From IMG/VR virus record IMGVR_UViG_3300027844_002282: a stretch of DNA of 64,000 bases; one strand, 5' to 3'. Position numbers and translations under genes: made by a program. The first letter of the stretch is position 1, and each line of letters starts with the position of its first letter. Below are positions 36,900 through 62,738 of the stretch, one piece after another. This DNA comes from a virus. Below the pieces are notes generated by a model. The model was not told the DNA's origin and did not search any database. It saw nothing but the letters and a program-made list of their open reading frames with translations.

Positions 36900-38125
36900 T
36901 TTATCTCGTGAATATCTCCATTAAAACCATGTGGCGTAACTCCAACAGGTAGATACCTCTTTAAAATCTGAATATCTTCATTTCCAAACTTCAAACCGCT
37001 CAAATCTACGGGTCTCTTCCTTACTATTACGCTTATATTATATCCATACTTTTTTACCCTCGCTAATGAACAGTCGAATCCAGCCAGGATGAGATGCATA
37101 AGGAGTAACCCAGCGTTCCACAAAGATACGTGTCCGCCAACGATCTCGTGTTTTAATGGAGGTACTGTTATGGCTAAGACCCCATCGTCGGTAAGGTCTC
37201 TGTGTATCTTCTTCAAAAATTCATTAGGACTTAATTGGTGTTCGAGAACATGAGAACACCATATACAATCGAACTTCTTGTCGAATTCATGATCACTATA
37301 GTCCCCAACTATATCGGCGTGTTTTCCATGGACATAATCTATAGAGGTAACGTCCTTTCTACACGACTTAAAAGCCGCCTTATGGTTCCCATGTCTACCG
37401 CATCCGATATCAAGTACTGATTTGAACTCGAAGTCGTTGACGAGCTTTGAAATGCATTCGTGAGAATGCATTTCAGTAAAAACAATCGGCTTTCTCTTCG
37501 TAATAATAGCTGCACTGTCAATATCTATTTTCATATCAAGAAACTTTGATATTGTATTCCATTCTTCTTTAGGGAAAGATGTGACATCTTCAAAATTAAC
37601 ATTTAGACAATCAATACCCTGATTGCTTACGTGTTCAACCATTTTATCTCTAAACCCGTTCCATTTTTCTATCCTACCCTTATAGTGCTTCGGGCTCAAC
37701 TTGTTCATCTTAGCCGAAGAAGCGGCTTGGTTGTCAATGTTTCTATGGAGAACGATGACTCTTACATCTACACCTGAATCTTTTAACTCTTTCAAGAATG
37801 GAAGGTCGTATGTTCTATATGATTTAGTCGCTACGACATCTTTGTTTTTATACTGGTTATTTAGGAATTTCTTATAGTCCTTAATATTCTCTTCACCCCT
37901 CTCTATAACACTCTCGATTGGTGGCGGGTTTTCGCAAACAAATAATTTCTTGTATATCTTCTTTATCTTATTTATGTGGGGCTCACTCTCAAAATATCCG
38001 CCTGGATTGAATTTGTCTTCAGTCTTCGTGTCCTTCACGAACGCTCCTGATTTCCTCAAAACCTTCATCATGTATGAAGACCCAATCCTCCCCATCCCAT
38101 ATGTTAATACAATCAATTTCTTCAT
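36890..38125 (-). CDS. Sulfotransferase-like domain fused to class I SAM methyltransferase
   Basis: GMGRIGSS, NPGGYFE, LHRN...SS, VNFED; then VLDIGCG, FDCIWCSHVLEH, G.L.ITVP. Confidence 0.75.
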   Translation of the reverse strand: MKKLIVLTYGMGRIGSSYMMKVLRKSGAFVKDTKTEDKFNPGGYFESEPHINKIKKIYKKLFVCENPPPIESVIERGEENIKDYKKFLNNQYKNKDVVATKSYRTYDLPFLKELKDSGVDVRVIVLHRNIDNQAASSAKMNKLSPKHYKGRIEKWNGFRDKMVEHVSNQGIDCLNVNFEDVTSFPKEEWNTISKFLDMKIDIDSAAIITKRKPIVFTEMHSHECISKLVNDFEFKSVLDIGCGRHGNHKAAFKSCRKDVTSIDYVHGKHADIVGDYSDHEFDKKFDCIWCSHVLEHQLSPNEFLKKIHRDLTDDGVLAITVPPLKHEIVGGHVSLWNAGLLLMHLILAGFDCSLARVKKYGYNISVIVRKRPVDLSGLKFGNEDIQILKRYLPVGVTPHGFNGDIHEINWK

Positions 38126-39525
38126 ACCAATTTCTCCAAGAAAGAAGTTTTGTCGTCACTAATGATGATACTTATTTTACCCTTATATTTATCAAGTATG
38201 CTTCTGTACGCTTTTGTTACCCCAGGCCAAGCCTGATTTTTGTAATCGTCAATAGCGATCACTCCGCCCTTAACAACATACGGGAACATCATTCCAAAAT
38301 CAGAATTTACAGCCGCCTCGCTGTGTTCTCCATCTATATACACGAAATTAAATTTTCGCCCTTCTATTTCTTTCTTAAGCTCGCATGAGGGGATGAAAAA
38401 ATGTTTATGGTTGGATAGCTTGGAGATGTGCTCGCAAAATTTTTCTCTAAATTTACCAATATTATTAGCCCCGTCTGTATTTAATCCTCCAGAGGCGAAT
38501 TTATCATTCAGTGGATCACATGAATACAATTCCCAATTTGGGAAAAGTGACATCATCATGTTAGAGATAAAAACAGTCGTCTTCCCAGCCTTCACCCCAA
38601 TCTCACACATATCTCCAACGATGTCTTTTTTCTTAAGCGAGAAAAATATATCTGCCATATCACCCATGACTTGTTTCTGACTTTTTAGATCCTCAACCTT
38701 TTTTGCTTCCCCTATAGCATCCCTAATGATCTTATTTTTCAAAGGTTCTGGGTATACCTCGTTATAGACTTTTCCCTTCTGTCGCCGTTCATTAAGTCTC
38801 TTGAAATGGGGGACATCCATCCAGTTATCTGGCCAGACTTGTGTGGCAGTTTCAATCCTCTTGCAATTCTTAAAATGTAAGTAGCATCTTTTGTCAATTT
38901 TACTCTCAGAAGAAGAATAGTTATTTAAGACTTCGCAGAAATCACCCTGTATATAATAAGACTCCGGGCAAACCTTGAAAACCCTTGGCTCGAATGTCGC
39001 TACCAAGTCTGGACTAAAATGAGAGATGTGATCCCCACTAAGATTTATTCCATGGAAAAACGTCTTCCCAAACTTTTTGTAGTTAGAAAGATCGGCGACC
39101 ATATTTGGCGTGGCTATCATATCACCATCCCACTTACAAACAAAGGATCTACTCGTGAGGGATAAGGACCAATTATAATAGTACGCAAGATCATGTATGG
39201 AGTCTTCTGGAATATCTCTATGACCGGGGCCATTATGATGCATCTTGAAAGGATATTGATATATCTTTATTTTATCAGAGTTAATATTCCTTATAATATT
39301 TTCTGTATTATCTTCCGAGCCATTTAGTGTAACGATTATCTCATCGAAAAACCCAAGTACAGACTGAATACTTGGTAGTATAAACTCTTCTTCGTTCTTT
39401 ATCCTGATCATTGCGGAAATTCCATCTTTCCTATTCTCAAGCCAGTCTTTTTTTATAAAATACTTTTCTACCCCTTCTCTATTTTTAAGATGCATTTTAA
39501 CCTCTATAGAATGGTTCCGAACCAT
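38122..39525 (-). CDS. GT2-like (CgtA-like) glycosyltransferase fused to a Methyltransf_24/TylF-like domain
   Basis: ISAMIRIKNEE..DEII..SEDNT, YYNWSL, KWDGD; EIGV..G, YIDGEH, GGVIAIDDY..WPGV. Confidence 0.75.
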   Translation of the reverse strand: MVRNHSIEVKMHLKNREGVEKYFIKKDWLENRKDGISAMIRIKNEEEFILPSIQSVLGFFDEIIVTLNGSEDNTENIIRNINSDKIKIYQYPFKMHHNGPGHRDIPEDSIHDLAYYYNWSLSLTSRSFVCKWDGDMIATPNMVADLSNYKKFGKTFFHGINLSGDHISHFSPDLVATFEPRVFKVCPESYYIQGDFCEVLNNYSSSESKIDKRCYLHFKNCKRIETATQVWPDNWMDVPHFKRLNERRQKGKVYNEVYPEPLKNKIIRDAIGEAKKVEDLKSQKQVMGDMADIFFSLKKKDIVGDMCEIGVKAGKTTVFISNMMMSLFPNWELYSCDPLNDKFASGGLNTDGANNIGKFREKFCEHISKLSNHKHFFIPSCELKKEIEGRKFNFVYIDGEHSEAAVNSDFGMMFPYVVKGGVIAIDDYKNQAWPGVTKAYRSILDKYKGKISIIISDDKTSFLEKLV

Positions 39526-46622: not shown

Positions 46623-47462
46623 TTATCTCTGGGTTTTTAATACATAAAGCTCGGATTGTTCTCCTTTAATATTTATACATAATGTCGTTATTTCTATGTC
46701 ACAACTTGGCCCTGAAATGGGACTTGTATTACAACTAAAAACTATCGTCTCGCCTCCCCAGGCAATTATTGGCTTAAAAAACACATCTATATCCATGCCA
46801 ACTAATTCGACATTCGACTTTGGACCTCTTAAGAAATCATATCCTGACTTGTTAGCATATTTGATAATTCCACAGTTTACCACTATAGCTGGACAGTAGA
46901 TCATATCAATAACTTGATCTACAACAAGGATTGTCCTATCCTTTTCATTAAACTCTTCTTCCACGTCCCTTATAGATACAATATATCCAGAGATCCCATT
47001 CTTTACTGGGGAAACAACAATGTCCGCATGAAAGCTTTTTCCCTTGTCTCCACAAACCTCATCCTGATAGGAGCACTTAACCCCCCCCGTTCTTTCAATA
47101 CCATTGCTCAAGGCCGTGCTAAACGGCTCTCTATCTTTCCCGTCTTCAGAAGGTATAAAAATGAATTTTGAGACATGGAGCCCCTTGACCTCATTAAATA
47201 TAATACCAAACATTTTTTCAGAAGCAGGGTTTATAAAAACAATATTCTCAGATTCATCAAGAACTAAGAAGCCATCGGCAGAGGTGGATAAAATAGAGTC
47301 GGTTATCTTATATAGAGCCTTCAATTCAAAATCCTGAGAAGATATATCATTGGCCATTTTGGACAAGTCATCCAGTCTTCCTTGATTTTTTTTATGTTCT
47401 ATTTCCATGCGCTTGCTTTTCTCAACAGCATCGCCGACAAATAACTTCACAACCCAGTTCAA
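46623..47462 (-). CDS. PAS-domain protein with no output domain
   Basis: ILSTSADGFLVLD..IVFINPASEKMFG...EVKG...SIRDV; second degenerate PAS (IKYANKS). Confidence 0.75.
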   Translation of the reverse strand: MNWVVKLFVGDAVEKSKRMEIEHKKNQGRLDDLSKMANDISSQDFELKALYKITDSILSTSADGFLVLDESENIVFINPASEKMFGIIFNEVKGLHVSKFIFIPSEDGKDREPFSTALSNGIERTGGVKCSYQDEVCGDKGKSFHADIVVSPVKNGISGYIVSIRDVEEEFNEKDRTILVVDQVIDMIYCPAIVVNCGIIKYANKSGYDFLRGPKSNVELVGMDIDVFFKPIIAWGGETIVFSCNTSPISGPSCDIEITTLCINIKGEQSELYVLKTQR

Positions 47463-47562
47463 AATTATACCTCACTGATAAAAAGAGTTAGAAAAAACAT
47501 ATAACACTGTTGTATTAAGTGAGATTTGACACAATCCCTTTGTGTCCAATAATGGATACAAA

Positions 47563-48297
47563 CTAATCTAAGTCAACACCGGTCCCCTTTTGTCTCTCTT
47601 TTATGATCCTAGTCTGAACCTCCACCGGCATTTCCTCATTTTGAATATGAGAAGTCCTATCCAAGTGTTGAATATCCAGAGATCTTTTTTGTTGCCAGAA
47701 TCCGCTGGCCATATCTACCATAGCTGAACCAAGACTATTTATCAGTCTGGTAATAGGCTGTAAGAACGGAATGTTTTGAAAAGCCATCCCTATCATAGTG
47801 AAAGCCAATCCGAAGCCAAGAAGGTACAAAAGGATCAACATGACTCCACTCATTTTCCACTTCCCCTTAGACTTGTTAATCGCATATTCTGAAAAATCGG
47901 TAAACGCTTTAGCACCCGCTTCCTGATCTTTGGATATATCTTGAACCAGACGAGCATCCTCGATAATACCTGAGCTTTTACCTATAATAGCATCTGTATG
48001 CTCAGAGGTTTGGGCAACGATTCCAGGAGCGCCCTTACGAACGATTTTATCGACTTCCGCTGTACGTCCAAGGATCTCAGCCGCATCTTCCTCGATACGC
48101 TCGCCTATTATCCCAACCGCTTCAGCGTTTTCACGCGCCTGTTTCGCTACAATAGCGGCTTCCCCGGCCTCAATTGCCAACCCAACGTCCTCGCCCTGCC
48201 TACCAGAGCTAAAGAAGCTTCGGCCCCCACCAACACACCCCGACATCAACACTGTCAACACCAACGAGATGATTAACATTTTTGGGACGGTCATCAT
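47563..48297 (-). CDS. Lipoprotein with helical region and TM helix (spanin-like architecture)
   Basis: Lipobox LMSG-C, helical middle region, hydrophobic VMLILLYLLGFGLAFTMIGMAF. Confidence 0.55.
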   Translation of the reverse strand: MMTVPKMLIISLVLTVLMSGCVGGGRSFFSSGRQGEDVGLAIEAGEAAIVAKQARENAEAVGIIGERIEEDAAEILGRTAEVDKIVRKGAPGIVAQTSEHTDAIIGKSSGIIEDARLVQDISKDQEAGAKAFTDFSEYAINKSKGKWKMSGVMLILLYLLGFGLAFTMIGMAFQNIPFLQPITRLINSLGSAMVDMASGFWQQKRSLDIQHLDRTSHIQNEEMPVEVQTRIIKERQKGTGVDLD

Positions 48298-48388
48298 AAC
48301 TACCTCCGAACACGTGATTTAGAGGACTAAACGCTTAGGGCAATTGTATTTTTGCCGACCTCCAAACCATGAGCGTCTAACTATTATA

Positions 48389-48545
48389 TAGTATTCTAAT
48401 TAATGAAAAGGAAACCTTTATTTCCCACCAAAAGGAGGATTTTGTGAGAAGCTTTCTTAAAATGACTTGACATCGACCGTTTGTGGTGTATTATAAGCAC
48501 ATTGAAACAAACACATCGACATAAAAGTTTTTCGGAACGAAAGGA
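48389..48545. repeat. 157-bp direct repeat, copy 1 (divergent promoter cassette)
   Basis: Identical to 49287-49443; contains TTGACA-N16-TATTAT (+, 48467-48494) and AAAGG-N17-AGAAT (-, 48393-48419). Confidence 0.95.
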
Positions 48546-48560
48546 ACAGGATATTCAAAA

Positions 48561-48674
48561 ATGACTACAGCAATTACAACCAGAGTAAAAACGAATACAG
48601 TCGCTGCTATTATAGCAGCGTCCATCCGCCATGATAATGGTAGATGGAACGGGATTCGTTCCTCAGGGTTGTAG
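48561..48674 (+). CDS. Attenuator leader peptide, 37 aa (MTTAITTRVKTNTVAAIIAASIRHDNGRWNGIRSSGL)
   Basis: AGGA RBS; Thr/Ile/Ala-rich; its last codons form the antiterminator strand. Confidence 0.7.
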   Translation: MTTAITTRVKTNTVAAIIAASIRHDNGRWNGIRSSGL

Positions 48675-48700
48675 CCTTGTAGTTAAGTACAAGCGTACAA

Positions 48701-48740
48701 AAAAAAGGCCTGAGGGAATCAAAAACCTCAGGCCTTTTTT
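48701..48740 (+). terminator. Attenuator terminator hairpin
   Basis: AGGCCTGAGG-GAATCAAAAA-CCTCAGGCCT followed by a T run. Confidence 0.85.
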
Positions 48741-48756
48741 GTGTTCATACACAGAC

Positions 48757-48769
48757 GATCTTTGAAAAT
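48757..48769 (+). promoter_or_regulatory. rrn-type boxA-like antitermination element GATCTTTGAAAAT
   Basis: Resembles rrn leader boxA; related ACTTTGAAAAT at about 51346 before the second tRNA cluster. Confidence 0.5.
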
Positions 48770-48866
48770 AGAATAGAATAAAGAAAAAACAAAAGGGATG
48801 TTGTACTTCACGGTATAATAGACCTTTAACATACTCCTGTCTCTGCGTAACAAACAGAGGCAGATT

Positions 48867-48942
48867 GCGGACATCGTATAAAGGATAATTACCTTTGGCT
48901 TCCACCCAAATGATGTGAGTTCGAGTCTCACTGTTCGCTCCA
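48867..48942 (+). tRNA. tRNA-Gly(TCC)
   Basis: Cloverleaf, TTTGG-CT-TCC-AC-CCAAA, TTCGA, CCA. Confidence 0.9.
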
Positions 48943-48952
48943 ATTTTTTCTT

Positions 48953-49028
48953 GCGGGTATAGTTCAATTGGTAGAGCAATAGGTTTCCAACCTGTCTGTT
49001 GTCGGTTCGAATCCGACTACCCGCTCCA
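48953..49028 (+). tRNA. tRNA-Gly(TCC)
   Basis: Cloverleaf, ATAGG-TT-TCC-AA-CCTGT, CCA. Confidence 0.9.
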
Positions 49029-49030
49029 CT

Positions 49031-49132
49031 CTTGAAGGGGCTCCCGATTCTGAATATCAATGTAGGTGAGCCAAGTGGCGGATCGTGATTCAGCATGATC
49101 AAGTGGTGCCCAATCACCACCCTTCAAGACCA
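49031..49132 (+). ncRNA. tRNA-like RNA ending ACCA
   Basis: 8-bp acceptor-like stem CTTGAAGG/CCTTCAAG, three internal hairpins, no TTC T-loop. Confidence 0.55.
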
Positions 49133-49286
49133 TTTTTAATCACAACTGTTAAAAGGTTATATTATGGTAACGAAATGTATAAAAATAGTGGTGTTGCATG
49201 TTTGCTCTGATCGATCTATCTAATCTAAAATTGCCAGACATATCGACATTTATGGAAATGCACTCGAATAAGATCGAGTCAACGTT

Positions 49287-49443
49287 TAGTATTCTAATTA
49301 ATGAAAAGGAAACCTTTATTTCCCACCAAAAGGAGGATTTTGTGAGAAGCTTTCTTAAAATGACTTGACATCGACCGTTTGTGGTGTATTATAAGCACAT
49401 TGAAACAAACACATCGACATAAAAGTTTTTCGGAACGAAAGGA
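49287..49443. repeat. 157-bp direct repeat, copy 2 (promoter cassette for a two-gene insert)
   Basis: Identical to 48389-48545. Confidence 0.95.
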
Positions 49444-49458
49444 GAACGATGAGAACAA

Positions 49459-50277
49459 ATGAAAACTTACTGCATAATCGGTGCCTACGAGTATAATGGC
49501 AGTGCTCGTGATGCGATAGTCGAATACTTTTGTATGCAGGGGGTCGATGGCTTGGTTGTCGTTGATCATAGAAGCCAAAGACCGGCTAGCGACGAGATAG
49601 GGAATGCCGATGCTTGGATGTATCTATGCAGTGCTGCCTGTTCTGCTGGGATGGAGGTGATTTTTCAGTATCACGAATTACCGCGAAGCATAGACCAAGG
49701 ACGAATCGAGAAGATCGTGTCTACTGGGTGCGGCAAGATAAGTATCGGGAGCGCAGAAACTACAGAATGGGTCGGCTCTCACGAGTTGGCGGAAGAAAAC
49801 ATTGAGATTGGCAAGCGCATGGGTTTCGAGTGGGTGTGCGGCATAACGCCGAGGACGATCCTAATGGATTTACTTACTCGTAAGCGGAGAGAAGTTCTCG
49901 TCAGGAATAATGTCTTGTGCCTTACCCTTTCTCCCTATATCCTGTGGGGGTATATGTTTGCTGACGAGCGATTCCCCCATCAATGGGAAACCACGCTGGC
50001 GGGAAAGAACCTTCATGTCGAGTACGGTCTCACGCCGGAAAGACTTGCTGACTACGTTGAGCCACTTGACATAATGGCGGGAGTGGGATCACAGGTGGGT
50101 CTTGATGCCGGTAGCGCAGTATATGCCAAGATGTTAAACTTCAAGGGTTTGGTGATCTCGCTGCCGTTCGATCTGACGGGTGTGTTCGACACCTCAGTAA
50201 GAATGTCGCCTCCGGGCAGCTACCCGACTATTTGTGGGAATTTTGAAGAGGGAGGATACAGGAATGCCTATGCGTGA
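49459..50277 (+). CDS. Hypothetical protein, possible TIM-barrel-like enzyme
   Basis: 272 aa with alternating beta/alpha pattern; overlaps the next gene. Confidence 0.55.
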   Translation: MKTYCIIGAYEYNGSARDAIVEYFCMQGVDGLVVVDHRSQRPASDEIGNADAWMYLCSAACSAGMEVIFQYHELPRSIDQGRIEKIVSTGCGKISIGSAETTEWVGSHELAEENIEIGKRMGFEWVCGITPRTILMDLLTRKRREVLVRNNVLCLTLSPYILWGYMFADERFPHQWETTLAGKNLHVEYGLTPERLADYVEPLDIMAGVGSQVGLDAGSAVYAKMLNFKGLVISLPFDLTGVFDTSVRMSPPGSYPTICGNFEEGGYRNAYA

Positions 50278-51238
50278 CGGGATCGTGCTGAGATTTATTC
50301 CGGGGGTCACTTATTCTGTCGTCATTTTTCATATTGGTCACATGACCACGATGATGTGCAATTTTCTTTACGCGAAAAAGCATCATGGTATCTGCTATAT
50401 TGCGCCAGAGATAAGTACAATCGGGTTAAACGGAGCGGGGTTTATAAGACCGTACCTGTCGATAAGTGGCTATCGAACAGATACTTCTCTCAGGCTGTTT
50501 GGTAATCTGGGTATCCCGGAAGTACTGATAAGACCGATTCCAACATACTGGGGTGGCTTAGAGCTACGCCAAGAGATGAGTAAAAAACTTCATGCAGAAA
50601 CTGGAGCATCGATTAGCCAAATATTGGATGAATTCCCGAAGGCTGATATCAGTAGTTCGATAGTCGCTGTTTTTGATTTTCTCTTGGGGTCGAATGTCAT
50701 AATTCGCGGTGGTGATTGGAAGGGCATTGTAGATCCCCATATCCGTGCTTCGACTTATGTAGAGACCCATCGAGCGATCCTAAATTATTTAAGAGGGATA
50801 GTCGGTCAAGGTCCGATTACGGAACACTTCGCACCACTAGTTCTTTCGGACGGAGAGAAGATATCCAAGTCAGCCATTGCTGACATGGGAGAAGACCCCG
50901 TAGTAGTATTCCGAGAAGGGGGATGTTCGACGGAAAATGCCCCCGGAATTTCCCCTCTGGCGTATCTGGTATGGATGGCTGGAAAGGTTGGAGAGGATCT
51001 TAGGTCGATTGATGATTTTGTCAATTATTATCAGCTTTTCGACATCGAGGCTGTTCCGGAAGAGCTTGATTTTGTATTGGATGACCTGCTCAATGCCGAC
51101 GAGGTTGTCAAAAAAGCGTTCGGTCATACATCGAGTAGCGGCGATGACTTGGTGAAACACCTTGCTGTTTTCAGCGATGCTTTAGGGGTTAGTCGGGTCG
51201 ATGGCGTTTACGAGGATACTATAATTTGTAATTTTTGA
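50264..51238 (+). CDS. Minimal glutamyl-tRNA synthetase-like (GluRS/GluQ-RS-like) catalytic domain protein
   Basis: VLRFIP...FHIGH...NFLYAKKHHG, IIRGGDW, PLVLSDGEKISKS are GluRS HIGH, IRGED and KMSKS equivalents. Confidence 0.7.
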   Translation: MPMRDGIVLRFIPGVTYSVVIFHIGHMTTMMCNFLYAKKHHGICYIAPEISTIGLNGAGFIRPYLSISGYRTDTSLRLFGNLGIPEVLIRPIPTYWGGLELRQEMSKKLHAETGASISQILDEFPKADISSSIVAVFDFLLGSNVIIRGGDWKGIVDPHIRASTYVETHRAILNYLRGIVGQGPITEHFAPLVLSDGEKISKSAIADMGEDPVVVFREGGCSTENAPGISPLAYLVWMAGKVGEDLRSIDDFVNYYQLFDIEAVPEELDFVLDDLLNADEVVKKAFGHTSSSGDDLVKHLAVFSDALGVSRVDGVYEDTIICNF

Positions 51239-51454
51239 ACTTTTACAGAATGCATGGGATGAGCCTATTTCAAAGGTGGAAATAGAATTGTCCCCTGTGG
51301 AAAATAAGGATGCATCATCTATCCTGATTATAAAATATGCATAAATACTTTGAAAATGTTGGCGAAACCGGAAGTCATGACTCAGTGGAAACCCTCCGGT
51401 AACTCTCACCGACAGAAAACAAGAGAGCAATAGGCCTGGGCGGGAAAAATAGAT

Positions 51455-51532
51455 GCAGACTGTAGTGTTAGTAGCTCAGCACACTTGATTGTGGCTCAAG
51501 TAGGGGCGGTTCGAATCCGCTCAGCCTGCCCA
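51455..51532 (+). tRNA. tRNA-His(GTG)
   Basis: G-1, CTTGA-TT-GTG-GC-TCAAG, C discriminator, CCA. Confidence 0.85.
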
Positions 51533-51549
51533 TCTTTTGCTGTATAATA

Positions 51550-51636
51550 TCCAGTGTAAACCGTAATGGCAGCGGAACGGACTGTTAATCCGTGACATTT
51601 TATGTCCTGTAAGTTCAAGTCTTACCTCTGGAGCCA
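51550..51636 (+). tRNA. tRNA-Asn(GTT) with long variable arm
   Basis: ACGGA-CT-GTT-AA-TCCGT; extra GACAT-TTT-ATGTC arm; GCCA. Confidence 0.8.
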
Positions 51637-51646
51637 ATTTTATAAT

Positions 51647-51721
51647 AGGTCTGTAGCTTAGTTGGAAGAGCTACTGTCTTCTAAGCAGTTGGTCCGGGCT
51701 CGAATCCTGGCAGGAGCGCCA
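51647..51721 (+). tRNA. tRNA-Arg(TCT) with damaged acceptor stem (possible pseudogene)
   Basis: ACTGT-CT-TCT-AA-GCAGT; first three acceptor pairs mismatched. Confidence 0.6.
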
Positions 51722-51819
51722 GTCGCTCTATACGTCTCGTACCAAGCCGAGTGCAAACGGTTGGGATGTACCCGCAAGGGAAATTTTGCAACCGGATGGT
51801 ACCCGGCTGGACGAGCGCA
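51722..51819 (+). ncRNA. Double-pseudoknot structured RNA
   Basis: Five stems plus two 6-bp long-range pairings (see findings). Confidence 0.6.
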
Positions 51820-51827
51820 TTTTATTT

Positions 51828-51904
51828 GCCCCCGTAGTTCAATTGGATAGAGCAATAGTTTTCTAAACTATCTTGTGTAGGTTCGAGTCCTACCGGGGGT
51901 ACCA
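51828..51904 (+). tRNA. tRNA-Arg(TCT)
   Basis: ATAGT-TT-TCT-AA-ACTAT, CCA. Confidence 0.9.
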
Positions 51905-51915
51905 TTTCTCAAAGA

Positions 51916-51989
51916 GGGTCCGAAGCATTAAGGTGAGGCAATGGGTTTTTACCCTATGGAACAGGGATCATTACCCTGCGGGCCTACCA
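51916..51989 (+). tRNA. tRNA-Lys(TTT) with atypical T-loop
   Basis: ATGGG-TT-TTT-AC-CCTAT; T-loop ATCATTA; ACCA. Confidence 0.75.
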
Positions 51990-52003
51990 ATTTTCAAAAC
52001 AGC

Positions 52004-52031
52004 TTGACTTTTTTCAAAAGCAGGTTATAAT
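52004..52031 (+). promoter_or_regulatory. Sigma70-like promoter TTGACT-N16-TATAAT
   Basis: Immediately upstream of a tRNA cluster. Confidence 0.7.
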
Positions 52032-52044
52032 ACACTTAACAGAT

Positions 52045-52116
52045 GCCTACGTAGCTCAACTGGAAGAGCACTTCGCTACGAAGAGGTTGCAAGTTCAAAC
52101 CTTGCAGTGGGTACCA
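52045..52116 (+). pseudogene. tRNA-Arg(ACG)-derived gene with a 4-nt anticodon-arm deletion
   Basis: CTTCG-CTA-CGAAG where CTTCG-CT-ACG-AA-CGAAG is expected. Confidence 0.65.
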
Positions 52117-52120
52117 TTTT

Positions 52121-52265
52121 GATAATGTGGCGGAATTGGAATACGCGCCGCTGTAATAGCGGTAGAGAGCAATGGGTTCAACTCCCATTTAAGGTACGGT
52201 TACCGCTTGGCTGTAATAGCTAAGGCAATGTCTCCTTGTGGGTTCGAGACCCATCATTATCATCA
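52121..52265 (+). ncRNA. Double tRNA-Leu(TAA)-like RNA with two anticodon arms and two T-arms
   Basis: GATAATG/CATTATC acceptor, Leu-type D-arm, GCTGTAATAGC twice, T-arms with TTCAACT and TTCGAGA loops. Confidence 0.7.
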
Positions 52266-52275
52266 AAATTTAGAT

Positions 52276-52365
52276 TGCGGGTAAATCGACTGGCGTAGCA
52301 GATAACTGGCTCATAACCAGGGAGGGGCAACCCTTAGGTCGGTTCAATTCCGACACCCGCTACCA
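52276..52365 (+). tRNA. tRNA-Met(CAT) with long variable arm and 1:72 mismatch
   Basis: CTGG-CT-CAT-AA-CCAG; AGGG-GCAA-CCCT arm; ACCA. Confidence 0.7.
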
Positions 52366-52461
52366 TTTTAACTATGATAAAATATGAAATCAGATAGAGA
52401 TATGGATGTAGAGTATACAAAAACCCAACTCGTTATTTTTGGGATATATGAGATTTAATGT

Positions 52462-52557
52462 TGTGAGGATTGATTGAAAGTACTATGCTTTCATCAGGAA
52501 AACTGTAAAGTTCCATGGACTTAGCGGCTGGAGGTTCGACGCCTTCTCTCACAGCCA
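52462..52557 (+). ncRNA. tRNA-like RNA with Tyr-type loop and replaced D-arm
   Basis: TGTGAGG/TCTCACA-GCCA acceptor, canonical T-arm, CT-GTA-AA loop, long hairpin in the D position. Confidence 0.6.
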
Positions 52558-52558
52558 T

Positions 52559-52638
52559 AGCGGAAGAGTGGATGTGGATACATAGACCATACCAGCCTCA
52601 TAAGTTGGAGATTGCAGGTTCGACTCCTGCTTCCGCTA
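52559..52638 (+). tRNA. tRNA-Met/Ile2(CAT), no encoded CCA
   Basis: CCAGC-CT-CAT-AA-GTTGG; atypical D-arm; followed directly by a ribozyme. Confidence 0.75.
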
Positions 52639-52709
52639 GATTAGTATAATGACAAGCCTCCACGTGGCACTAATCGGAAACGAACTAACCCTCGGCTAAT
52701 TTGTCATTA
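52639..52709 (+). ncRNA. HDV-like (theta) self-cleaving ribozyme
   Basis: P1 GATTAGT/ACTAATC, P2 TAATGACAA/TTGTCATTA, P3 GCC/GGC, L3 TCCACGT, P1.1 CC:GG, J4/2 GCTAA. Confidence 0.85.
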
Positions 52710-52837
52710 ATAATATCCGTAATTATCATCAAATATTTCTTCGCCCCATCGGTCTTGAAATATCCAAAAGAGGAGGTGTCGATAATACACAAGGAAATTC
52801 CATGGTTAATACACGATCCCATTAATTTTCGAATAGG

Positions 52838-52954
52838 TTGTGACTAAGGCCCGGTAAAGCCGGGTGCCGATCACTTACTAAGGCCTCAGCCCGTAAGTGC
52901 CGGGCGGGAACACAGAGGCTCTACCCCCGAAGATAACCAAACTTTGAGTCACAA
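52838..52954 (+). ncRNA. Structured RNA with probable kissing loop
   Basis: TTGTGACT/AGTCACAA closing stem; CCCGG/CCGGG; CACTTAC/GTAAGTG; loop GCCTC can pair with GAGGC. Confidence 0.5.
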
Positions 52955-53002
52955 TACTTTTTCCTTGGAGATAATATGGAAGATAAAATACACCCGCTGG
53001 TT

Positions 53003-53053
53003 GGACAATCGTTCAAAGTTGAATGGTGGATTCGAATCCCACTTGGTCCACCA
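53003..53053 (+). pseudogene. tRNA remnant or minihelix (T-arm plus acceptor ending ACCA)
   Basis: GTGGA-TTCGAAT-CCCAC-TTGGTCC-ACCA with no D or anticodon arm. Confidence 0.45.
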
Positions 53054-53121
53054 ATTTATTACAGGGATTTCTTTCGAATAATTAGAAGTATTAGCTCAAC
53101 CCACAACAATAGGAGGGTAAT

Positions 53122-53409
53122 ATGAATAAGAACAAAATCATCGGGACACTAATGGTGGCTCCGTTACCGATTTATCTCGTCTATCTTCTTTTGGCAAAAG
53201 AGATTTTGCCGATTGTCATTTGTCTTGCGGCTGGAGTTGGATTATTCCACTTCGGACTCAAACTTTTGACAGGATCAACACTCGAAGAGGTCGGCGAAGA
53301 TGTTGTCAGACATCTCGACGAGGTTGAGGAAGAAGCAGAAGAAGCAGTTGATAAGATTAAGAAAAAGACAAGGAAGCCAAGGGCGAAGAAGGCTGTTAAA
53401 AAGAGTTGA
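53122..53409 (+). CDS. Small membrane protein, two TM helices and basic tail (holin-like)
   Basis: AGGAGG RBS; late-promoter motif at 53061-53088. Confidence 0.65.
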   Translation: MNKNKIIGTLMVAPLPIYLVYLLLAKEILPIVICLAAGVGLFHFGLKLLTGSTLEEVGEDVVRHLDEVEEEAEEAVDKIKKKTRKPRAKKAVKKS

Positions 53410-53532
53410 CGGATAGGGTATGTTAAAATGACCGACGACCATTCTTCCCCACGGGGAAGTAGCTATTACATACGTTGAGGGATTGGATACGAGACCAATA
53501 CGTGAGTTTCACAAGATGGCAAGTCAATTTTT

Positions 53533-53609
53533 GGATCGGTGGCGCAATTAGGTAGCACAGCAGACTTTTAATCTGTGGGTTGTGGGTTCGATTCCCACCC
53601 GATTCACCA
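53533..53609 (+). tRNA. tRNA-Lys(TTT)
   Basis: GCAGA-CT-TTT-AA-TCTGT, ACCA. Confidence 0.9.
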
Positions 53610-53700
53610 GCTTGATTGACAGGGTCTCGCAGACCGTACCAATAACAAAAGCAAATATCTTAATCTATGCCACCTGACATTTTATTTTTACGAGGAGCCA

Positions 53701-54009
53701 ATGAATAATTTAACGGAAGAAAAAATATTTGACGAGTTAAGACCAATATTAGACCCTGATCTTGGAATAAGCATTGTAGATATGGGTTTGATATATAAAG
53801 CCAAGATAAATGGAGATCATGTTGATGTTGAAATGACATTAACATCTATTGGATGTCCATATGGTCCATATTTAATATCTGAAGTAACAGAAACAGTCAA
53901 AAATATTGATAGTATTAAAACGGTAAATGTAGAACTCGTTTGGGAACCACCTTGGTCGATTGAAAATTTGTCAGACGAAGTTAAATTAGATATTGGAATA
54001 GACATCTAA
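53701..54009 (+). CDS. DUF59 / SufT-like Fe-S assembly protein
   Basis: DPDLGISIVDMGLIY, MTLTSIGCP, VELVWEPPW. Confidence 0.9.
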   Translation: MNNLTEEKIFDELRPILDPDLGISIVDMGLIYKAKINGDHVDVEMTLTSIGCPYGPYLISEVTETVKNIDSIKTVNVELVWEPPWSIENLSDEVKLDIGIDI

Positions 54010-54069
54010 ACCGGTTGCAAGTTCGATTCTTGCCTGGAGAGATAATTTTCAACAAGGGTATTTTTATTT

Positions 54070-54148
54070 GGCCTTAGCTCATGTTGTGGCTTAGAGCGCC
54101 TGTTTTGCAAGCAGGAGGTAGTGGGTTCGATGCCCACAGGGGCCACCA
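54070..54148 (+). tRNA. tRNA-Ala(TGC) with shortened acceptor 5' strand
   Basis: CCTGT-TT-TGC-AA-GCAGG; GGCCT opposite AGGGGCC. Confidence 0.65.
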
Positions 54149-54156
54149 ATTTTTAC

Positions 54157-54561
54157 TTAAAGTCCAGCCAATCCCCTAAATAAACGCATGGCACCAATTC
54201 TATCACCCGCGAAATTACCCTTTTGGTCATCTGGGCCAACAAAAAACCAGTAATCTCTGAATCTGTCGGTTGCAATTTCACCGAGGATCTTCCTGATCTG
54301 GGTGTGAGAGATATCTTGAGAAAAGGTCGCCTCAAAATTTTCCGCGAAGAATGTCAACCTACACCAGCCACTTGCGATAGCATTATAGCCAAGGGTGAGA
54401 CTGTCAAAGGGCATTGGAAACGATTCAGAACCAATCTCGTCTTCAGAAAGGTATTCTGCTAAAGCTTTCTCATGTCCCTGGAAATCATTTACGGGGACTT
54501 CTCCACCATCAGGGTCTATCCATAACCCATAAGCCCCTTGAGATTTTTTGTACCAATTCAT
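54157..54561 (-). CDS. Hypothetical protein (MNWYKKSQ...)
   Basis: 134 aa, antisense to the tRNA island. Confidence 0.65.
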   Translation of the reverse strand: MNWYKKSQGAYGLWIDPDGGEVPVNDFQGHEKALAEYLSEDEIGSESFPMPFDSLTLGYNAIASGWCRLTFFAENFEATFSQDISHTQIRKILGEIATDRFRDYWFFVGPDDQKGNFAGDRIGAMRLFRGLAGL

Positions 54562-54798
54562 ATTTTGTCCATATCAAAATTTCTATGCTCAGTTGGGGAA
54601 ACGCCGGAGCGCGTAACTCCGCCCCTCTGGGCTCCTTTTCAACGAAGAGTAAGCATTAAAGAGGTACTGTCACAATTAGATGTACAATAAACTCAGTCCA
54701 CATCCCTCTCATATAACAATGACAGCATCGAGGTAAATATATGAAAAACTATGAAGAAATGAGCTGCGAAGAGCTTCGCCAAAACAGGAAAAAATAGT

Positions 54799-55242
54799 AT
54801 GGGGCTACTTAGCGCTATTTGTAAAGGTTGCAAGAAAAATATTGAACATTTTAGTTTCGACAATGACATCACCTGTAGAGGATGCGGAATTATAAATGCT
54901 TCAAGTGAAATTCAGCTTTCGACCTTAAGCTACGGAAAGGGACGTGAAGACGGAAAAGACTCATCATCCAGATGGCTTAAATCTTGGATGAACAATAGAG
55001 AAAAACATAATTCATTAGAAGATTGGTATAATGCACTATATAGTATTGTTTACAAAACCAAAAAGTCGCCGCCAAAATTCAAAACTAAAATATCCCTACA
55101 CGCATCAAACCTTCTTTTAAATATGGCAAGGCTTAAGAAAGAGGGGATGGGCGACGAGAAACACGACTATATGTGCGAAAAGATTTGCGATGTTATAATA
55201 GACGCAGAAGATTGGGAAAAAGAACATGATATAGAATCATAG
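54799..55242 (+). CDS. Zn-ribbon hypothetical protein
   Basis: CKGC...CRGC. Confidence 0.6.
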   Translation: MGLLSAICKGCKKNIEHFSFDNDITCRGCGIINASSEIQLSTLSYGKGREDGKDSSSRWLKSWMNNREKHNSLEDWYNALYSIVYKTKKSPPKFKTKISLHASNLLLNMARLKKEGMGDEKHDYMCEKICDVIIDAEDWEKEHDIES

Positions 55243-55303
55243 TGGGAATAAATGGTGACAACATGACAAAAAGAATCGTAGTAACGAACAAGAGATAATC
55301 ATA

Positions 55304-56030
55304 ATGCAATGGGACTCAGTATACATGCCAAACTCAGCTTATCCCCCGCACGTTGGACATGCGGCAATGATCTTACACGCAAGAGCGAGCTTTCTCTACA
55401 CAAAATTTTATTTAGAATCTTATAACACGCCTGGAATCGATCTTAGATGGGGGGTCGTTCATGATGTTCGCTCAACACCAGAGTTTGAAAAAATGCAGGT
55501 TGATCTTATGAATTGGATGGGATACCCACCGGAATTTGAATTGCGACTAAATGAATATGGGAATTTTCAAGCCGACGTGATGTGCATGTTGTTAAAGATG
55601 GAAATTCGAGAGGCCGATTTCAAAAGCCTTGAAATTGGGAAGTTTATGGTTCTAAACTCAGTAAGAACTCACATAAGGGGGGTGGGACCTTGTTCCGTTA
55701 GAAAAAGTAGAGAGGCCATTGGCGGGCGCTTTTGGATTCGGCTACCCAACAATAAGATACGCCCCATTATTATTAGACAATAATGGCGAAAAGATATGCT
55801 CTAGTAAAAGCGAGCATAAAAAGTTTCAACTAACTCAAGTAACTATGGATTCAAATGGGCCAGACAGTCTGATTGAAAAGCTATTAAAATGCCACTGCCC
55901 TGACGCGGAACATGTGAGAGGCGAAGACCCTGACGAAATAGCGATCAGATGGTGTAGAAAACTATGGACGCATTACCATGGATTAGCTTGTCTTGGACAG
56001 CCAATGACGCCAATAAAATTTAACTTATAA
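55304..56030 (+). pseudogene. Second minimal GluRS-like gene, split by one extra G in a G6 run
   Basis: PHVGH; removing one G at 55677-55682 joins THIRG-WDL...GYPTIRYAPLLLDNNGEKICSSKS. Confidence 0.7.
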
Positions 56031-56033
56031 AAT

Positions 56034-56110
56034 GCCGATGAAACATTTATATGGATGATGTCCTGTCTTGTAAGCAGGTTAACTCGGATCGTTACCGAGC
56101 TTCGGCTCCA
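56034..56110 (+). tRNA. tRNA-Thr(TGT) with atypical T-loop
   Basis: CCTGT-CT-TGT-AA-GCAGG; T-loop ATCGTTA; TCCA. Confidence 0.75.
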
Positions 56111-56111
56111 A

Positions 56112-56603
56112 TTACGTCTTCAAACCGCCAGGAGCGTTTTGTTGATCAAAGTATTGAGTGACAGCACCCTGGTCAAAGTACCCCAGTTCCCCAAGATACT
56201 TCTCAACATCCAGGGAAGGGGCGAATACGCTTTTGAAATAAGTGCGTAGTTTTGGAATCACCTCACTTGGCATAAAGAGCCCGCTTCTGTTCATATCAAC
56301 AATGTGTATTTGAACCTGTTTGGTCCCTCTCGGATACAACGCTTCCCCTGCGTATGGGATAAGCCACATCTGAAGATACCCCAGACGAACATTCGTAGGG
56401 GCGAAAACCTGGATTTCAACAAGACTCCTGTCAGATCTATTTTCGACCCTTGATTTCACCTCAAGACCAAAAAACTCTTGAACTATATTAACAGCCCCGG
56501 CCTCTGCGGCCTGAACGTCTGCATCGTCCAAAGCCAATTTCTTGTCCAAAACAGATCTTACTTTCTGTTGAAGGGCATCATTATCGTCTGCATAAATTCT
56601 CAT
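56112..56603 (-). CDS. Hypothetical protein
   Basis: 163 aa; late-promoter motif at 56643-56670. Confidence 0.65.
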   Translation of the reverse strand: MRIYADDNDALQQKVRSVLDKKLALDDADVQAAEAGAVNIVQEFFGLEVKSRVENRSDRSLVEIQVFAPTNVRLGYLQMWLIPYAGEALYPRGTKQVQIHIVDMNRSGLFMPSEVIPKLRTYFKSVFAPSLDVEKYLGELGYFDQGAVTQYFDQQNAPGGLKT

Positions 56604-56680
56604 GAAAATAACCTAATATGTAAAATTAACTTGTTTTTTCATATACGCGGTTACATTGCAGATATCCTTTTTCAATCTAT

Positions 56681-56744
56681 ACATTGGTGGCGCAACAGGC
56701 TCTTAATCTGAAGGTTGCGGGTTCGATTACCGCCCGATGCACCA
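56681..56744 (+). pseudogene. tRNA-Lys(CTT)-derived gene lacking most of the D-arm
   Basis: CAGG-CT-CTT-AA-TCTG; T-arm and ACCA present. Confidence 0.6.
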
Positions 56745-56745
56745 A

Positions 56746-57018
56746 TTACTCAAGGCCGAGCATCTCTTTTGCTCTCTCGTCAGTGATCAAGCCTGATTCA
56801 AAAGACTTAAAGATTTGCTCGAAAGAGAAACCGTCTTTGTAAATACGGCCAATCTCGTAAGCCTCGTTCCCATGCGGAACGGTAATTACAGCAGTGGCAG
56901 CCTGGGCGGCACCTAATTGCTTTTCGACTCTGGCCTTTTCTGACTCAAGGTCTTGGACGGAAGCGGGTGAATTTTGAGAGCCAACAGTAACGACAAATAA
57001 TCTTTTACTCATAATCAA
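56746..57018 (-). CDS. Hypothetical protein resembling fragments of the portal
   Basis: VVTVGSQNSPASVQDL / VITVPH / GLIT..A.EMLG echo portal VVKVGTEERPASEADI / IVTHH / GLISATRVL. Confidence 0.55.
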   Translation of the reverse strand: MIMSKRLFVVTVGSQNSPASVQDLESEKARVEKQLGAAQAATAVITVPHGNEAYEIGRIYKDGFSFEQIFKSFESGLITDERAKEMLGLE

Positions 57019-57056
57019 ACTCCTGTGGTTAGGTTAAAATATATTATACATCACAT

Positions 57057-57136
57057 GGACGCATAGCTTAGTCTGGCTAAAGCGCTTGTATGACACATGC
57101 AAGAGATCGTTGGTTCGAATCCAACTGTGTTCACCA
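57057..57136 (+). tRNA. tRNA-Val(GAC) with 2-nt expanded anticodon loop
   Basis: CTTGT-ATGACACAT-GCAAG (9-nt loop); ACCA. Confidence 0.65.
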
Positions 57137-57426
57137 AACTTAAAAATATTAATAGAAGGTCATATTATGGGTAAACATCACGAATGTAAAATTACAAAAC
57201 TAAAAGACCAGGAATTTTTCAAGAAAGATAATCCACACTATGGAAGGTCTCGCAGAATTTATAAGCAAGAATTCCACAGCCTTTGACCCAGATGATAAGA
57301 AAAAGCTAAAGCTATGGGCGGAAGAAGAGTTCGCGAGGCAAGAAAGGGCGTTAACAACTTGATATCAATAAGTAGTTAAAAGGATCTTAGTTAAAATCTA
57401 AAGAAATAGCCTATGGAGGCTATAAA

Positions 57427-57723
57427 ATGGATGCTGACGAAAAAGATTTACAGAAAAGTCTTGGGATTGAAAACATAGATGAAGAAGATGAACTTCAGGA
57501 CGTGATAGGGAGAGAGGGGAAGATCGTTGAGGCGGACTTCCTGATTACGCAAATAATAATGCTACAATCCATCCTTAGAAGGGACTACTCTATCGACGAA
57601 AGAGAAATTAGGAAAAGGTCTTCCGTACTATGTAGAAGGTCCAATTTCGAATATTTATCAGATATTGTTAGAGAAATTGAATCCTTAAGAATAAGACATG
57701 ACAAGAAAAATACGGCGGGATAG
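57427..57723 (+). CDS. Hypothetical protein
   Basis: GGAGG RBS; late-promoter motif at 57379-57406. Confidence 0.65.
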   Translation: MDADEKDLQKSLGIENIDEEDELQDVIGREGKIVEADFLITQIIMLQSILRRDYSIDEREIRKRSSVLCRRSNFEYLSDIVREIESLRIRHDKKNTAG

Positions 57724-57781
57724 CTCAACTGGAAGAGCACTTGTTTCATACGCAAGAGGTTGGGGGGCGGTTCCGCCACCA
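57714..57781 (+). pseudogene. tRNA-Met(CAT)-derived gene lacking the T-arm
   Basis: Intact acceptor, D and anticodon arms; T-arm replaced by GGGGGGCGG. Confidence 0.6.
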
Positions 57782-58279
57782 ATTTCCCACAACGACTTGA
57801 AAACAACGATAACAGTGCTATGTTATCTCATAACCTGCTTAAGGAAAAATCATGAATCATTACATCGAAGTGTTGATCAAACAAGAGATTGGGAAATTTG
57901 TCGAGGAAGAATTGAGAGGTAGATATAGAGATTACGTCTCAGACATCTTCTTGACTTCAATCTTATTGAATCGTATGAATGACAGCCATCATCATGGCGG
58001 CATATCAAGAGGTTAGTACTTTTTCGAGGACGACCACAACGCCACCGTTTTTTTACGAAGCATCTTGCTGTATCTTTGAATCGATCTTATAGTATGGTTG
58101 CAAAGTTGGCGGGAATGGCCATCACGTTGCCCAGAACTTTTATTCATACATGAAGATAAGATTGCATGGAGTGACAAGGGAAATCGCTATTAAAAAGGGC
58201 GAGACTATAGAAAGGGGTTATAATTAGCGCTCTTGAAGGAGAACTTAGTAAAAATCTCATAGAAGCCCGTGTCCCCCAT

Positions 58280-58486
58280 TTGGCTGCGGCGATAAGAGAC
58301 ATGGAAGGTTGCCCTAATGGAGATCTAAAGTGTTCAAGGTGCAAAGCTGAAGGTGCGTCAAACAACAGACAACGCACCGCATATGCAAATCCAGACAATA
58401 TGGCAATTTATTGCCCATCATGTCAAGAAGAAGCGGACGCTTATTGGAAAGAGCAATGGGATGAATATTACGGTGCAATATTATAA
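58280..58486 (+). CDS. Small Zn-finger protein
   Basis: CSRC...CPSC; the true start may be MEGC. Confidence 0.5.
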   Translation: MAAAIRDMEGCPNGDLKCSRCKAEGASNNRQRTAYANPDNMAIYCPSCQEEADAYWKEQWDEYYGAIL

Positions 58487-58506
58487 CTCGTAACCAGGAA
58501 GACATT

Positions 58507-58767
58507 ATGACAATTTATAGAAGAACAATGGAAATTTCTAACAAAGAGTTGAGCAATGGCCAATGGGAAATTTTTAACAAAAAGAATATTGAATTTATTG
58601 CTCTGGCGCTAAGGAGCGACAAGTGGACATCAATTGATAATTTATCAAAAGACATTGGGCTCTATAGAAAAGCTCATAAAGAGCCAGAAATAACTCAAGA
58701 AGAGATCATCGTAGCGTTAGAAAGTTTAATATTGCACGACATGGCGGAGTGCAAAGAGTCCGAATAA
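58507..58767 (+). CDS. Hypothetical protein
   Basis: 86 aa, AGGAAG RBS. Confidence 0.55.
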   Translation: MTIYRRTMEISNKELSNGQWEIFNKKNIEFIALALRSDKWTSIDNLSKDIGLYRKAHKEPEITQEEIIVALESLILHDMAECKESE

Positions 58768-59267
58768 TACAACGAGAGGGAAGTATGGAAGATATGAAAT
58801 GGGAAATTGAGCCTCACAAACTAAGTCCGTGTCCTGGAGACTATGGTGAAATAATAGGGAACGTTAACCAAATGGAATATAATGGTAAAGAAATCCCATG
58901 GATACAGGATGTTCATTTATTGGTTGGCCAGCTACCCACATTTGAAAAAGAGATGAAATACGCGGTATTTCATGATTGCGTAGTAAAGTTAGACCGGAAC
59001 ACGTGCAAAAGTAAGCTAATGCCAGTTTATGAGGTGATCTCCAAAAGAAGGCCCATAGACACAAACGGTGAGGGAAACGAGTCTACTTACAAAGAGATGG
59101 AGATATTTCTTATGTCATGTCATCTTGACGCAAGAAGGACCTTGGCCTGCAATGTTCTCAAAGAGCTTGGTTGTGATTATGTAACTATGATTAGAAGGTT
59201 GGGTCCAACAATGATCGGCCCGCCAAACGGCTTTATTTATGAAGAATTAGCAATCGTTGGTCAATAA
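58749..59267 (+). CDS. Hypothetical protein
   Basis: Likely start at MEDMKW. Confidence 0.55.
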   Translation: MQRVRIIQREGSMEDMKWEIEPHKLSPCPGDYGEIIGNVNQMEYNGKEIPWIQDVHLLVGQLPTFEKEMKYAVFHDCVVKLDRNTCKSKLMPVYEVISKRRPIDTNGEGNESTYKEMEIFLMSCHLDARRTLACNVLKELGCDYVTMIRRLGPTMIGPPNGFIYEELAIVGQ

Positions 59268-59272
59268 TATAT

Positions 59273-59346
59273 GCTCTTGTGGTGAAAAGGAATCATTTCT
59301 CTTTCCTAAAGAGATGTTGCGGGTTCAAGTCCTGCCGGGAGTACCA
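59273..59346 (+). tRNA. tRNA-Arg(CCT)
   Basis: TCTCT-TT-CCT-AA-AGAGA, ACCA. Confidence 0.85.
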
Positions 59347-60269: not shown

Positions 60270-60271
60270 TT

Positions 60272-60664: not shown

Positions 60665-60670
60665 AGACTA

Positions 60671-60868: not shown

Positions 60869-60977
60869 TCTGGATTAGGGAGCCAGTTGAATGCCAACTT
60901 CCCAAGGACGGGCGTTGAGGAATCCTCAATAGCTCTTACGAGAGCGAATCCTTGTTAAAAACACGTCGCCATTTTAC

Positions 60978-61242: not shown

Positions 61243-61272
61243 ATTATGTAGAACCAAAAACGTAGAGAATTT

Positions 61273-61843: not shown

Positions 61844-61849
61844 AAGGGC

Positions 61850-62737: not shown

Positions 62738-62738
62738 C

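Follow-up and report, generated by a model that had tools for sequence, protein, structure and literature searches.

A candidate leader-peptide transcription attenuator at the head of a phage tRNA island

The tRNA island and the leader in front of it

The window analyzed here is a stretch of 64,000 nt from the IMG/VR virus record IMGVR_UViG_3300027844_002282, and all coordinates, unless assigned to another contig, are positions in this window. It is part of the genome of an uncultured marine phage, encodes a portal protein and a large terminase, and its sequence is also present on a 153.6-kb ENA scaffold and on several JGI/ENA contigs. No cultured phage close to it was found, and terminase relatives reached only 22-24% identity. 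About 20 tRNA or tRNA-like genes, all on the plus strand, form a tRNA island that extends from 48.8 kb to the end of the window. The tRNA set comprises Gly-UCC, His-GUG, Asn-GUU, Arg-UCU/CCU/UCG, Lys-UUU, Met-CAU, Thr-UGU, and Ala-UGC, with Lys and Arg species being abundant. The island is headed by two tRNA-Gly(UCC) genes and a structured RNA of about 100 nt (Table 1). The fold of this RNA (-40.1 kcal/mol, z -3.5) is closed by a long 10-bp terminal stem, and it has no match in Rfam. The tRNA cluster of T4 includes stable non-tRNA species, which this RNA recalls.

Other features of the island and of the window touch on tRNA handling. A weak match to an HDV-like ribozyme (RF02682, 33.8 bits against a gathering score of 44) at 52639-52708 adjoins the 3' end of the tRNA at 52562-52638, and this element could be a self-cleaving 3' processing element. 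The tRNA-like gene at 52045-52113 scores 47 bits in Rfam and has a shortened anticodon loop, for which ARAGORN gives a 2-nt 'anticodon', and the tRNA at 57057-57136 is assigned the anticodon ACA ('Cys') by ARAGORN, A34 being unusual in that family. An 811-aa protein (28061-30496, minus strand) carries a PolyA_pol head domain of the CCA-adding enzyme type at residues 580-712, and two methyltransferase-like genes are located at 36890-39525; these predicted genes point to a rich tRNA-handling gene set. A gene for a PAS-domain protein (46623-47462, minus strand) lies beside a 244-aa lipoprotein-like gene, and the pair is syntenic in relatives (contig L003 and the contig encoding protein P0016).

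Table 1. Positions of the features at the head of the tRNA island
Feature	Position in window	Strand	Details
Promoter/5'UTR/ATG block, 176 nt	48389-48564, repeated at 49287-49462	+	157 nt exact, last 19 diverge
Promoter P1, TTGACA-16-TATTAT	48467-48494	+	11/12 matches
SD-like AGGA	48548-48551	+	9 nt before ATG
Leader ORF, 37 codons	48561-48674	+	start ATG 48561, stop TAG 48672-48674
Region 1, 5' strand of long helix (codons 1-13, proposed stall zone)	48562-48601	+	in the MFE structure
Apical hairpins (two)	48602-48620, 48621-48648	+	in the MFE structure
Region 2, 3' strand of long helix	48649-48685	+	contains the antiterminator strand and the stop codon
Region 3 (terminator 5' arm and loop start)	48707-48720	+	
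Region 4	48726-48734	+	
Intrinsic terminator	48707-48740	+	stem, 10-nt loop, T6; A8 upstream
Structured spacer	48741-48866	+	9-bp hairpin ending 3 nt before the tRNA; z -4.8
tRNA-Gly(UCC), two genes	48867-48942, 48953-49028	+	first genes 3' of the terminator
Structured RNA, probably co-transcribed	49029-49133	+	directly 3' of the second tRNA-Gly

Upstream of the island lies promoter P1, a sigma70-like promoter with a predicted transcription start near 48501. The leader ORF behind it encodes a peptide that starts MTTAITTRVKTNT. Thr occupies six of the first 13 codons (nominal p ~3e-5 at 5.4% Thr), and the ORF as a whole contains five Ile, five Ala, two AGA, and one ATA. The long helix formed by regions 1 and 2 partly occludes the start codon. 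The intrinsic terminator consists of the 5' arm GGCCTGAGG (48707-48715), a 10-nt loop, the 3' arm CCTCAGGCC (region 4), and a T tract at 48735-48740; its folding energy, with the flanking A8 and T6 included, is -25 kcal/mol. It was the sole strong canonical plus-strand terminator detected by a terminator scan between 48 and 64 kb; a simple scanner overlooked it because the loop limit of that scanner was 8 nt. On the minus strand it is at least as good (T8), the A8 making it bidirectional, and it could therefore be a module insulator. A preliminary description of the locus had claimed a sigma70-like promoter, a 37-codon leader with the codon counts given above, and a strong terminator, and all of these were recovered.

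Some other calls in the same stretch were dismissed. The minus-strand 44-aa hydrophobic ORF at 48625-48491 was not accepted as a gene, as it has no usable SD and its sole promoter-like site is downstream of its start. The intron-containing 'tRNA-Thr' over 48634-48763, reported by ARAGORN under relaxed settings, was discounted, since many of the calls made under these settings are false. The leader peptide has no membrane-spanning stretch, for which reason it was not taken for a type I toxin.

Alternative folds, a second lineage, and codon content

The MFE structure of the leader is a long-range helix in which region 1 pairs with region 2, with the two apical hairpins at its tip. For the 140-nt leader by itself, the folding energy is -55.4 kcal/mol (z -7.1), a stability that none of 300 shuffles equaled, and for the leader together with the terminator it is -87.1 kcal/mol (z -8.7). 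An alternative pairing, the antiterminator, joins GATTC-gtt-CCTCAGG in region 2 (48653-48667) to CCTGAGGGAATC in region 3 (48709-48720). The energy of this duplex is -18.8 kcal/mol, in comparison with -12.4 +/- 2.2 kcal/mol for shuffled leaders, and 22 of 2000 dinucleotide shuffles reach it. This complementarity and both apical hairpins had been proposed in the preliminary description and were confirmed. The switch as drawn there is not supported, since the 1:2 helix was missing from it: the hairpin GGAACG/CGTTCC, which was taken as the competitor of the antiterminator, is not the main one, and the long helix between 48562-48601 and 48649-48685 is. In the fold model, this helix is the anti-antiterminator, which completes a trp-type 1:2, 2:3, and 3:4 layout.

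Ribosome-masked folding was simulated on a transcript ending at 48725, just before the terminator 3' arm. Masking of codons 1-17 made the antiterminator the MFE structure of the window leader; when the transcript was unmasked, or when the stop region was masked, the terminator 5' arm was free. The masked folds thus act as an attenuator model needs, as simulations and not as functional proof.

A comparable arrangement was found in a distant lineage. A HMMER search with the divergent 244-aa neighbor returned a few distant homologs, among them P0007 (36% identity), which is encoded on contigs L011 and L012. The order on the minus strand of these contigs is the divergent neighbor gene, promoter, SD, ORF, terminator, structured spacer, and tRNA-Gly(UCC). 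In L011, the promoter (TTGACA-17-TATAAT) has 12/12 matches, and the SD AGGTG is located 7 nt before the ATG of a 36-codon leader ORF, MQFVKMTTRARANHTITKRGNGWDTPYSGSSGESVT. The terminator at 988-949 reads CCCCGAG(a)CCC-loop-GGGCTCGGGG-TTTT, its arms being CCCCGAG/CTCGGGG, and the 3'-arm sequence CTCGGGG is repeated in the 3' part of the ORF, within region 2. The L011 leader is predicted to form a long hairpin (z -5.6), in which codons 5-14 pair with region 2. Its antiterminator duplex has an energy of -19.5 kcal/mol, which is weak in comparison with shuffles, as 94 of 2000 reach it (p ~0.05). The stop codon lies 24 nt beyond region 2, so a terminating ribosome would leave region 2 uncovered, and the unmasked MFE structure at the decision point is already the antiterminator.

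The leaders of the window and L011 are 65% identical, with an alignment score of 32.8 vs 0.4 +/- 9.7 for shuffles. The leader ORF is retained in both lineages with near-equal length (37 vs 36 codons), an SD, and a start codon, and the peptide motifs TTR, NG-W, and SSG are common to both. The first apical hairpin (18 nt) is absent from L011, which is an in-frame difference, and the second is kept around an AATGG..TGG motif. Region 2 is CCTCAGGGT in the window and ACTCGGGGT in L011, region 3 is GGCCTGAGG and ACCCCGAGA, respectively, and region 4 changes likewise. As a result, A-U in the window becomes G-C in L011 in both the 2:3 and the 3:4 helix, a compensatory change that was read from a global pairwise alignment, the MAFFT alignment of the switch region having mis-paired the terminator arms. 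The leader of L012 differs from that of L011 only by CC -> TT, which converts two G-C pairs of the 1:2 helix to G-U and Pro to Phe. This substitution keeps the pairing and alters the peptide, which suggests that the RNA pairing is constrained and not the peptide. The first base of the tRNA-Gly is A in L011 (position 765, A1-C72 mismatch) and G in L012 (position 246, G1-C72 pair).

The comparison thus comprises only two independent lineages, the window and L011/L012, too few for covariation statistics. Among contigs encoding the window's own proteins, the leader sequence is invariant (100% identity), so these contigs provide no variation for comparison. IMG/VR scans with the terminator sequence, a 272-aa protein encoded downstream of the switch, an alignment of the 244-aa family, and a degenerate leader pattern from the two lineages gave no matches, and one JGI metagenome that was scanned yielded no new loci. 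Among GenBank phages, neither the 272-aa protein nor P0007 had a match, and DNA hits were at the tRNA level only, in T4-like phages. Homologs of the flanking gene (P0008, P0009, P0010, and P0017) were found in other gene contexts, where neither leader nor tRNA was present. The protein P0016 is ~60% identical to P0007; the 935 nt upstream of it are gene-free on two Logan contigs, from runs SRR28093593 and SRR28370465, and a search with P0016 gave no further relatives.

The codon content of region 1 was compared with that of phage genes. Region 1 of the window includes ACA (three times), ACG, AGA, AAA, AAT, GCA, and ATG. Codons read by the window tRNA set account for 28.5% of the codons in 31 long window ORFs, which served as the background. 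In region 1, nine of the 13 codons are readable by phage tRNAs (2/13 and 4/13 in the other frames), a count reached by 0.3% of 13-codon windows in phage genes; in region 1 of L011, nine of the ten codons are readable by the window tRNA set (three and two in the other frames), which 0.03% of 10-codon windows reach, although these p-values are modest and partly post hoc, as the region-1 boundaries (from the folds) and the codon set were chosen after the data had been seen. The window tRNA set stands in for that of L011, whose contig shows tRNA-Gly(UCC) and, at the contig end, an incomplete 5' portion of another tRNA gene. Outside region 1, both leaders are at background for tRNA-readable codons.

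Codon conservation between the two stall zones is limited to ACA-ACS-AGA (Thr-Thr-Arg). In L011, region 1 contains two Thr and lacks Ile, and the Thr run and the Ile codons of the window are not common to both leaders. Since region 1 is written in codons for Thr-UGU, Arg-UCU, Lys-UUU, Asn-GUU, Ala-UGC, and Met, slow decoding of these codons is the likely signal. Region 1 of the window contains no Gly codons, though tRNA-Gly(UCC) is the first gene behind the terminator; Gly codons occur in region 2, where a stall would favor termination according to the model, which counts against the attenuator reading.

Reach of the switch and interpretation of the locus

The genes that may depend on the switch were delimited by a search for other promoters. 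The window spacer between terminator and tRNA contains no sigma70-like site with at least 9/12 matches, and the TATAAT at 48814 is part of a hairpin stem and is not preceded by a -35 element. In L011, no sigma70-like promoter was found between the terminator and tRNA-Gly, and the next promoter-like site occurs only after tRNA-Gly. The L011 spacer (948-766, minus strand) forms several hairpins, with stems of 12 bp and 16+7 bp among them; a 145-nt portion folds at -71.6 kcal/mol (z -9.1), and 5 nt separate the last stem from the tRNA. The 10-nt motif CATACTCCTG is present both in the L011 spacer and in the window hairpin that precedes the tRNA (48829-48838). As neither phage has a sigma70-like site before the tRNA, tRNA-Gly(UCC) is most likely dependent on read-through.

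The promoter/5'UTR/ATG block occurs a second time 898 bp downstream, where the promoter copy is exact (49365-49392). This second copy drives a 272-aa ORF and a GluRS-like ORF and has no attenuator. The distance from the promoter block to the leader ATG equals that to the start of the 272-aa ORF, which is also called by public gene callers. Many public contigs (L003, L004, and L007-L010) end in the repeated block, which indicates that assemblers break there. The two ORFs constitute a cassette (49459-51238) with a GC content of 45-50% vs ~40% in the flanks, and the GluRS-like ORF has a weak tRNA-synt_1c match and a HIGH-type motif region. The same cassette was found in another phage (L001, 10001-11780) with 99% protein identity, among replication genes and without tRNAs. 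Because it is GC-richer and found elsewhere without tRNAs, the cassette looks like a recent insertion, and the pre-insertion leader would have headed the whole tRNA array. Given the unattenuated promoter copy at 49365, the switch would at present control only the two tRNA-Gly genes, the adjoining RNA, and some extra flux. The preliminary description had the entire tRNA operon gated by the switch, which is not supported in view of an identical, unattenuated promoter ~900 bp downstream.

We interpret the locus as a ribosome-mediated (leader-peptide) transcription attenuator that heads the phage tRNA island, to which we assign a probability of roughly 55%; translation of the ORF, stalling, regulated read-through, and the sensed signal are all inferred from the sequence. 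Besides the placement of the Gly codons, several features weigh against this reading: the unattenuated promoter copy, the quality of the terminator on the minus strand, the partly occluded start codon, and, in L011, the position of the stop codon and the unmasked fold. The earlier proposal of a translated leader with terminator and antiterminator before the tRNAs is in this part favored by the alternative folds, the layout in a distant phage, the frame-specific codons, and the lack of an intervening promoter; its specificity for particular amino acids fared less well, as discussed below. In the proposed mechanism, the first 37 codons of the P1 RNA would be translated while RNA polymerase advances. 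If the ribosome runs through, or if none loads, region 1 would pair with region 2, the terminator would form, and transcription would stop; a ribosome at the stop codon would cover region 2, with formation of the terminator as well. A ribosome stalled in region 1 would leave region 2 free, so that GATTC..CCTCAGG could pair with the terminator 5' arm and loop, and with this antiterminator formed, the polymerase would pass the terminator and transcribe the structured spacer, both tRNA-Gly(UCC) genes, the structured RNA next to them, and possibly the remainder of the island.

The signal sensed by such a switch would probably be slow decoding of the codons read by phage tRNAs, i.e., the leader would be a demand sensor for tRNA supply. 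Host codon-usage mismatch, late-infection tRNA depletion, and cleavage of host tRNAs by anticodon nucleases are possible causes of slow decoding. The idea that phages use such a sensor to monitor the supply of their own tRNAs and open the tRNA island only when decoding is slow is put forward tentatively, as a possibility that falls short of being probable. If true, classical attenuation would be extended from amino-acid supply to tRNA supply, a translation-coupled attenuator would give the phage a direct read-out of its decoding capacity, and the module would date back far enough to occur in phages with flanking proteins that are only ~36% identical.

Several other explanations were weighed against the attenuator. 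The locus might be a free-standing unit, in which a promoter is followed by a structured sRNA and/or a gene for a 37-aa peptide and the terminator simply ends this unit, with the tRNAs transcribed by leaky read-through or from an unrecognized (phage-specific) promoter in the spacer. In favor of such a unit, sRNA genes likewise combine a very stable hairpin with a terminator behind it, the motifs TTR, NG-W, and SSG of the peptide recur in the relative, the window terminator is bidirectional, and a TATAAT is present at 48814; this TATAAT, however, lacks a -35 element and sits in an RNA hairpin stem, and L011 has no promoter-like site before its tRNA. We consider such a unit unlikely, as it leaves unexplained why both leaders carry a copy of the terminator 3' arm despite differing arm sequences and why the codon content of region 1 is frame-specific, and the change of Pro to Phe between L011 and L012, with RNA pairing kept, also speaks against it. 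A relic without regulatory role, in which the promoter block was duplicated on entry of the cassette and an accidental ORF and an insulating terminator were left, would account for the exact 157-nt duplication and is in line with a cassette that is GC-richer than its flanks and occurs elsewhere, in the L001 phage, without tRNAs. The leader-terminator-tRNA-Gly unit is nevertheless present in L011/L012, where both the duplication and the cassette are absent, and the z-scores of the folds and the score of the leader alignment argue for constraint, which makes a relic extremely improbable.

Two further explanations accept a regulated terminator and concern what operates it. In translation-independent antitermination, a protein, a tRNA, or a small ligand would bind the long hairpin, a phage or host protein being among the candidates, and the bound factor would free or lock the antiterminator, with the ORF being incidental. 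The same layout of terminator, antiterminator, and anti-antiterminator is used by riboswitches, T-boxes, and protein-dependent systems, the leader is extremely structured, and the stop codon of L011 is not placed to mask region 2. We nonetheless regard this mechanism as very improbable: no Rfam family was found at threshold, with neither a T-box nor a riboswitch hit, an ORF of similar length with a well-spaced SD is present in both lineages despite the in-frame 18-nt hairpin difference, and the codon enrichment is restricted to the frame of the ORF. The other explanation, which follows the preliminary description, keeps the translated leader and makes it a thr/ilv-like sensor of Thr/Ile for stress-induced counter-defense, turned on when host anticodon nucleases cut tRNAs. 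It was reported that viral tRNAs rescue infection from tRNA-cutting defense (PMC11464382), Lys and Arg species are plentiful in the phage tRNA set, and the window leader has six Thr in 13 codons. The Thr/Ile specificity was not borne out, however, since region 1 of the relative keeps Thr-Thr-Arg(AGA) only, with just two Thr and no Ile, and the match of the window leader to the Rfam Thr_leader family is sub-threshold and lies mainly over the terminator. A sensor of this kind is distinctly unlikely, and both the counter-defense role, i.e., a response to tRNA cleavage by host nucleases, and the Thr/Ile specificity are speculation.

Relation to known attenuators

To our knowledge, almost nothing is established about the control of phage tRNA genes. 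Codon compensation, late-infection translation, and escape from tRNA-cutting defense (e.g., PMC11464382) have been considered as reasons why phages carry tRNAs, and the attenuator proposed here bears on that question. A search of the full-text literature found no paper describing a leader-peptide attenuator before phage tRNA genes. Among Rfam families, the Thr-rich window leader resembles Thr_leader (RF00506), to which 48671-48742 gives a weak match. It is not a member of this family: the score is 29.8 bits vs a gathering score of 55, and the match covers mainly the A-tract, stem, and T-tract of the terminator. L011 has no match to RF00506, and no T-box or riboswitch match was obtained in Rfam searches (E up to 1) of window positions 47500-64000 and of L011.

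Leader-peptide attenuators are known from enterobacterial amino-acid operons (trpL, thrL, hisL, ilvL, and pheL) and from pheST. The phage locus has in common with them a promoter, a short ORF led by an SD, and an intrinsic terminator before the genes that would be regulated, as well as mutually exclusive 1:2, 2:3, and 3:4 pairings, candidate regulatory codons in region 1, and a stop codon in or near region 2. Unlike in the enterobacterial systems, two extra hairpins are enclosed by a 1:2 helix of unusual length, and a large 10-nt terminator loop joins the antiterminator. Region 1 does not contain a run of a single codon but mixes codons read by phage tRNAs, and the regulated genes would be phage tRNA genes instead of biosynthetic or synthetase genes. 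The novelty of the proposed switch is thus textbook attenuation applied to phage tRNA genes.
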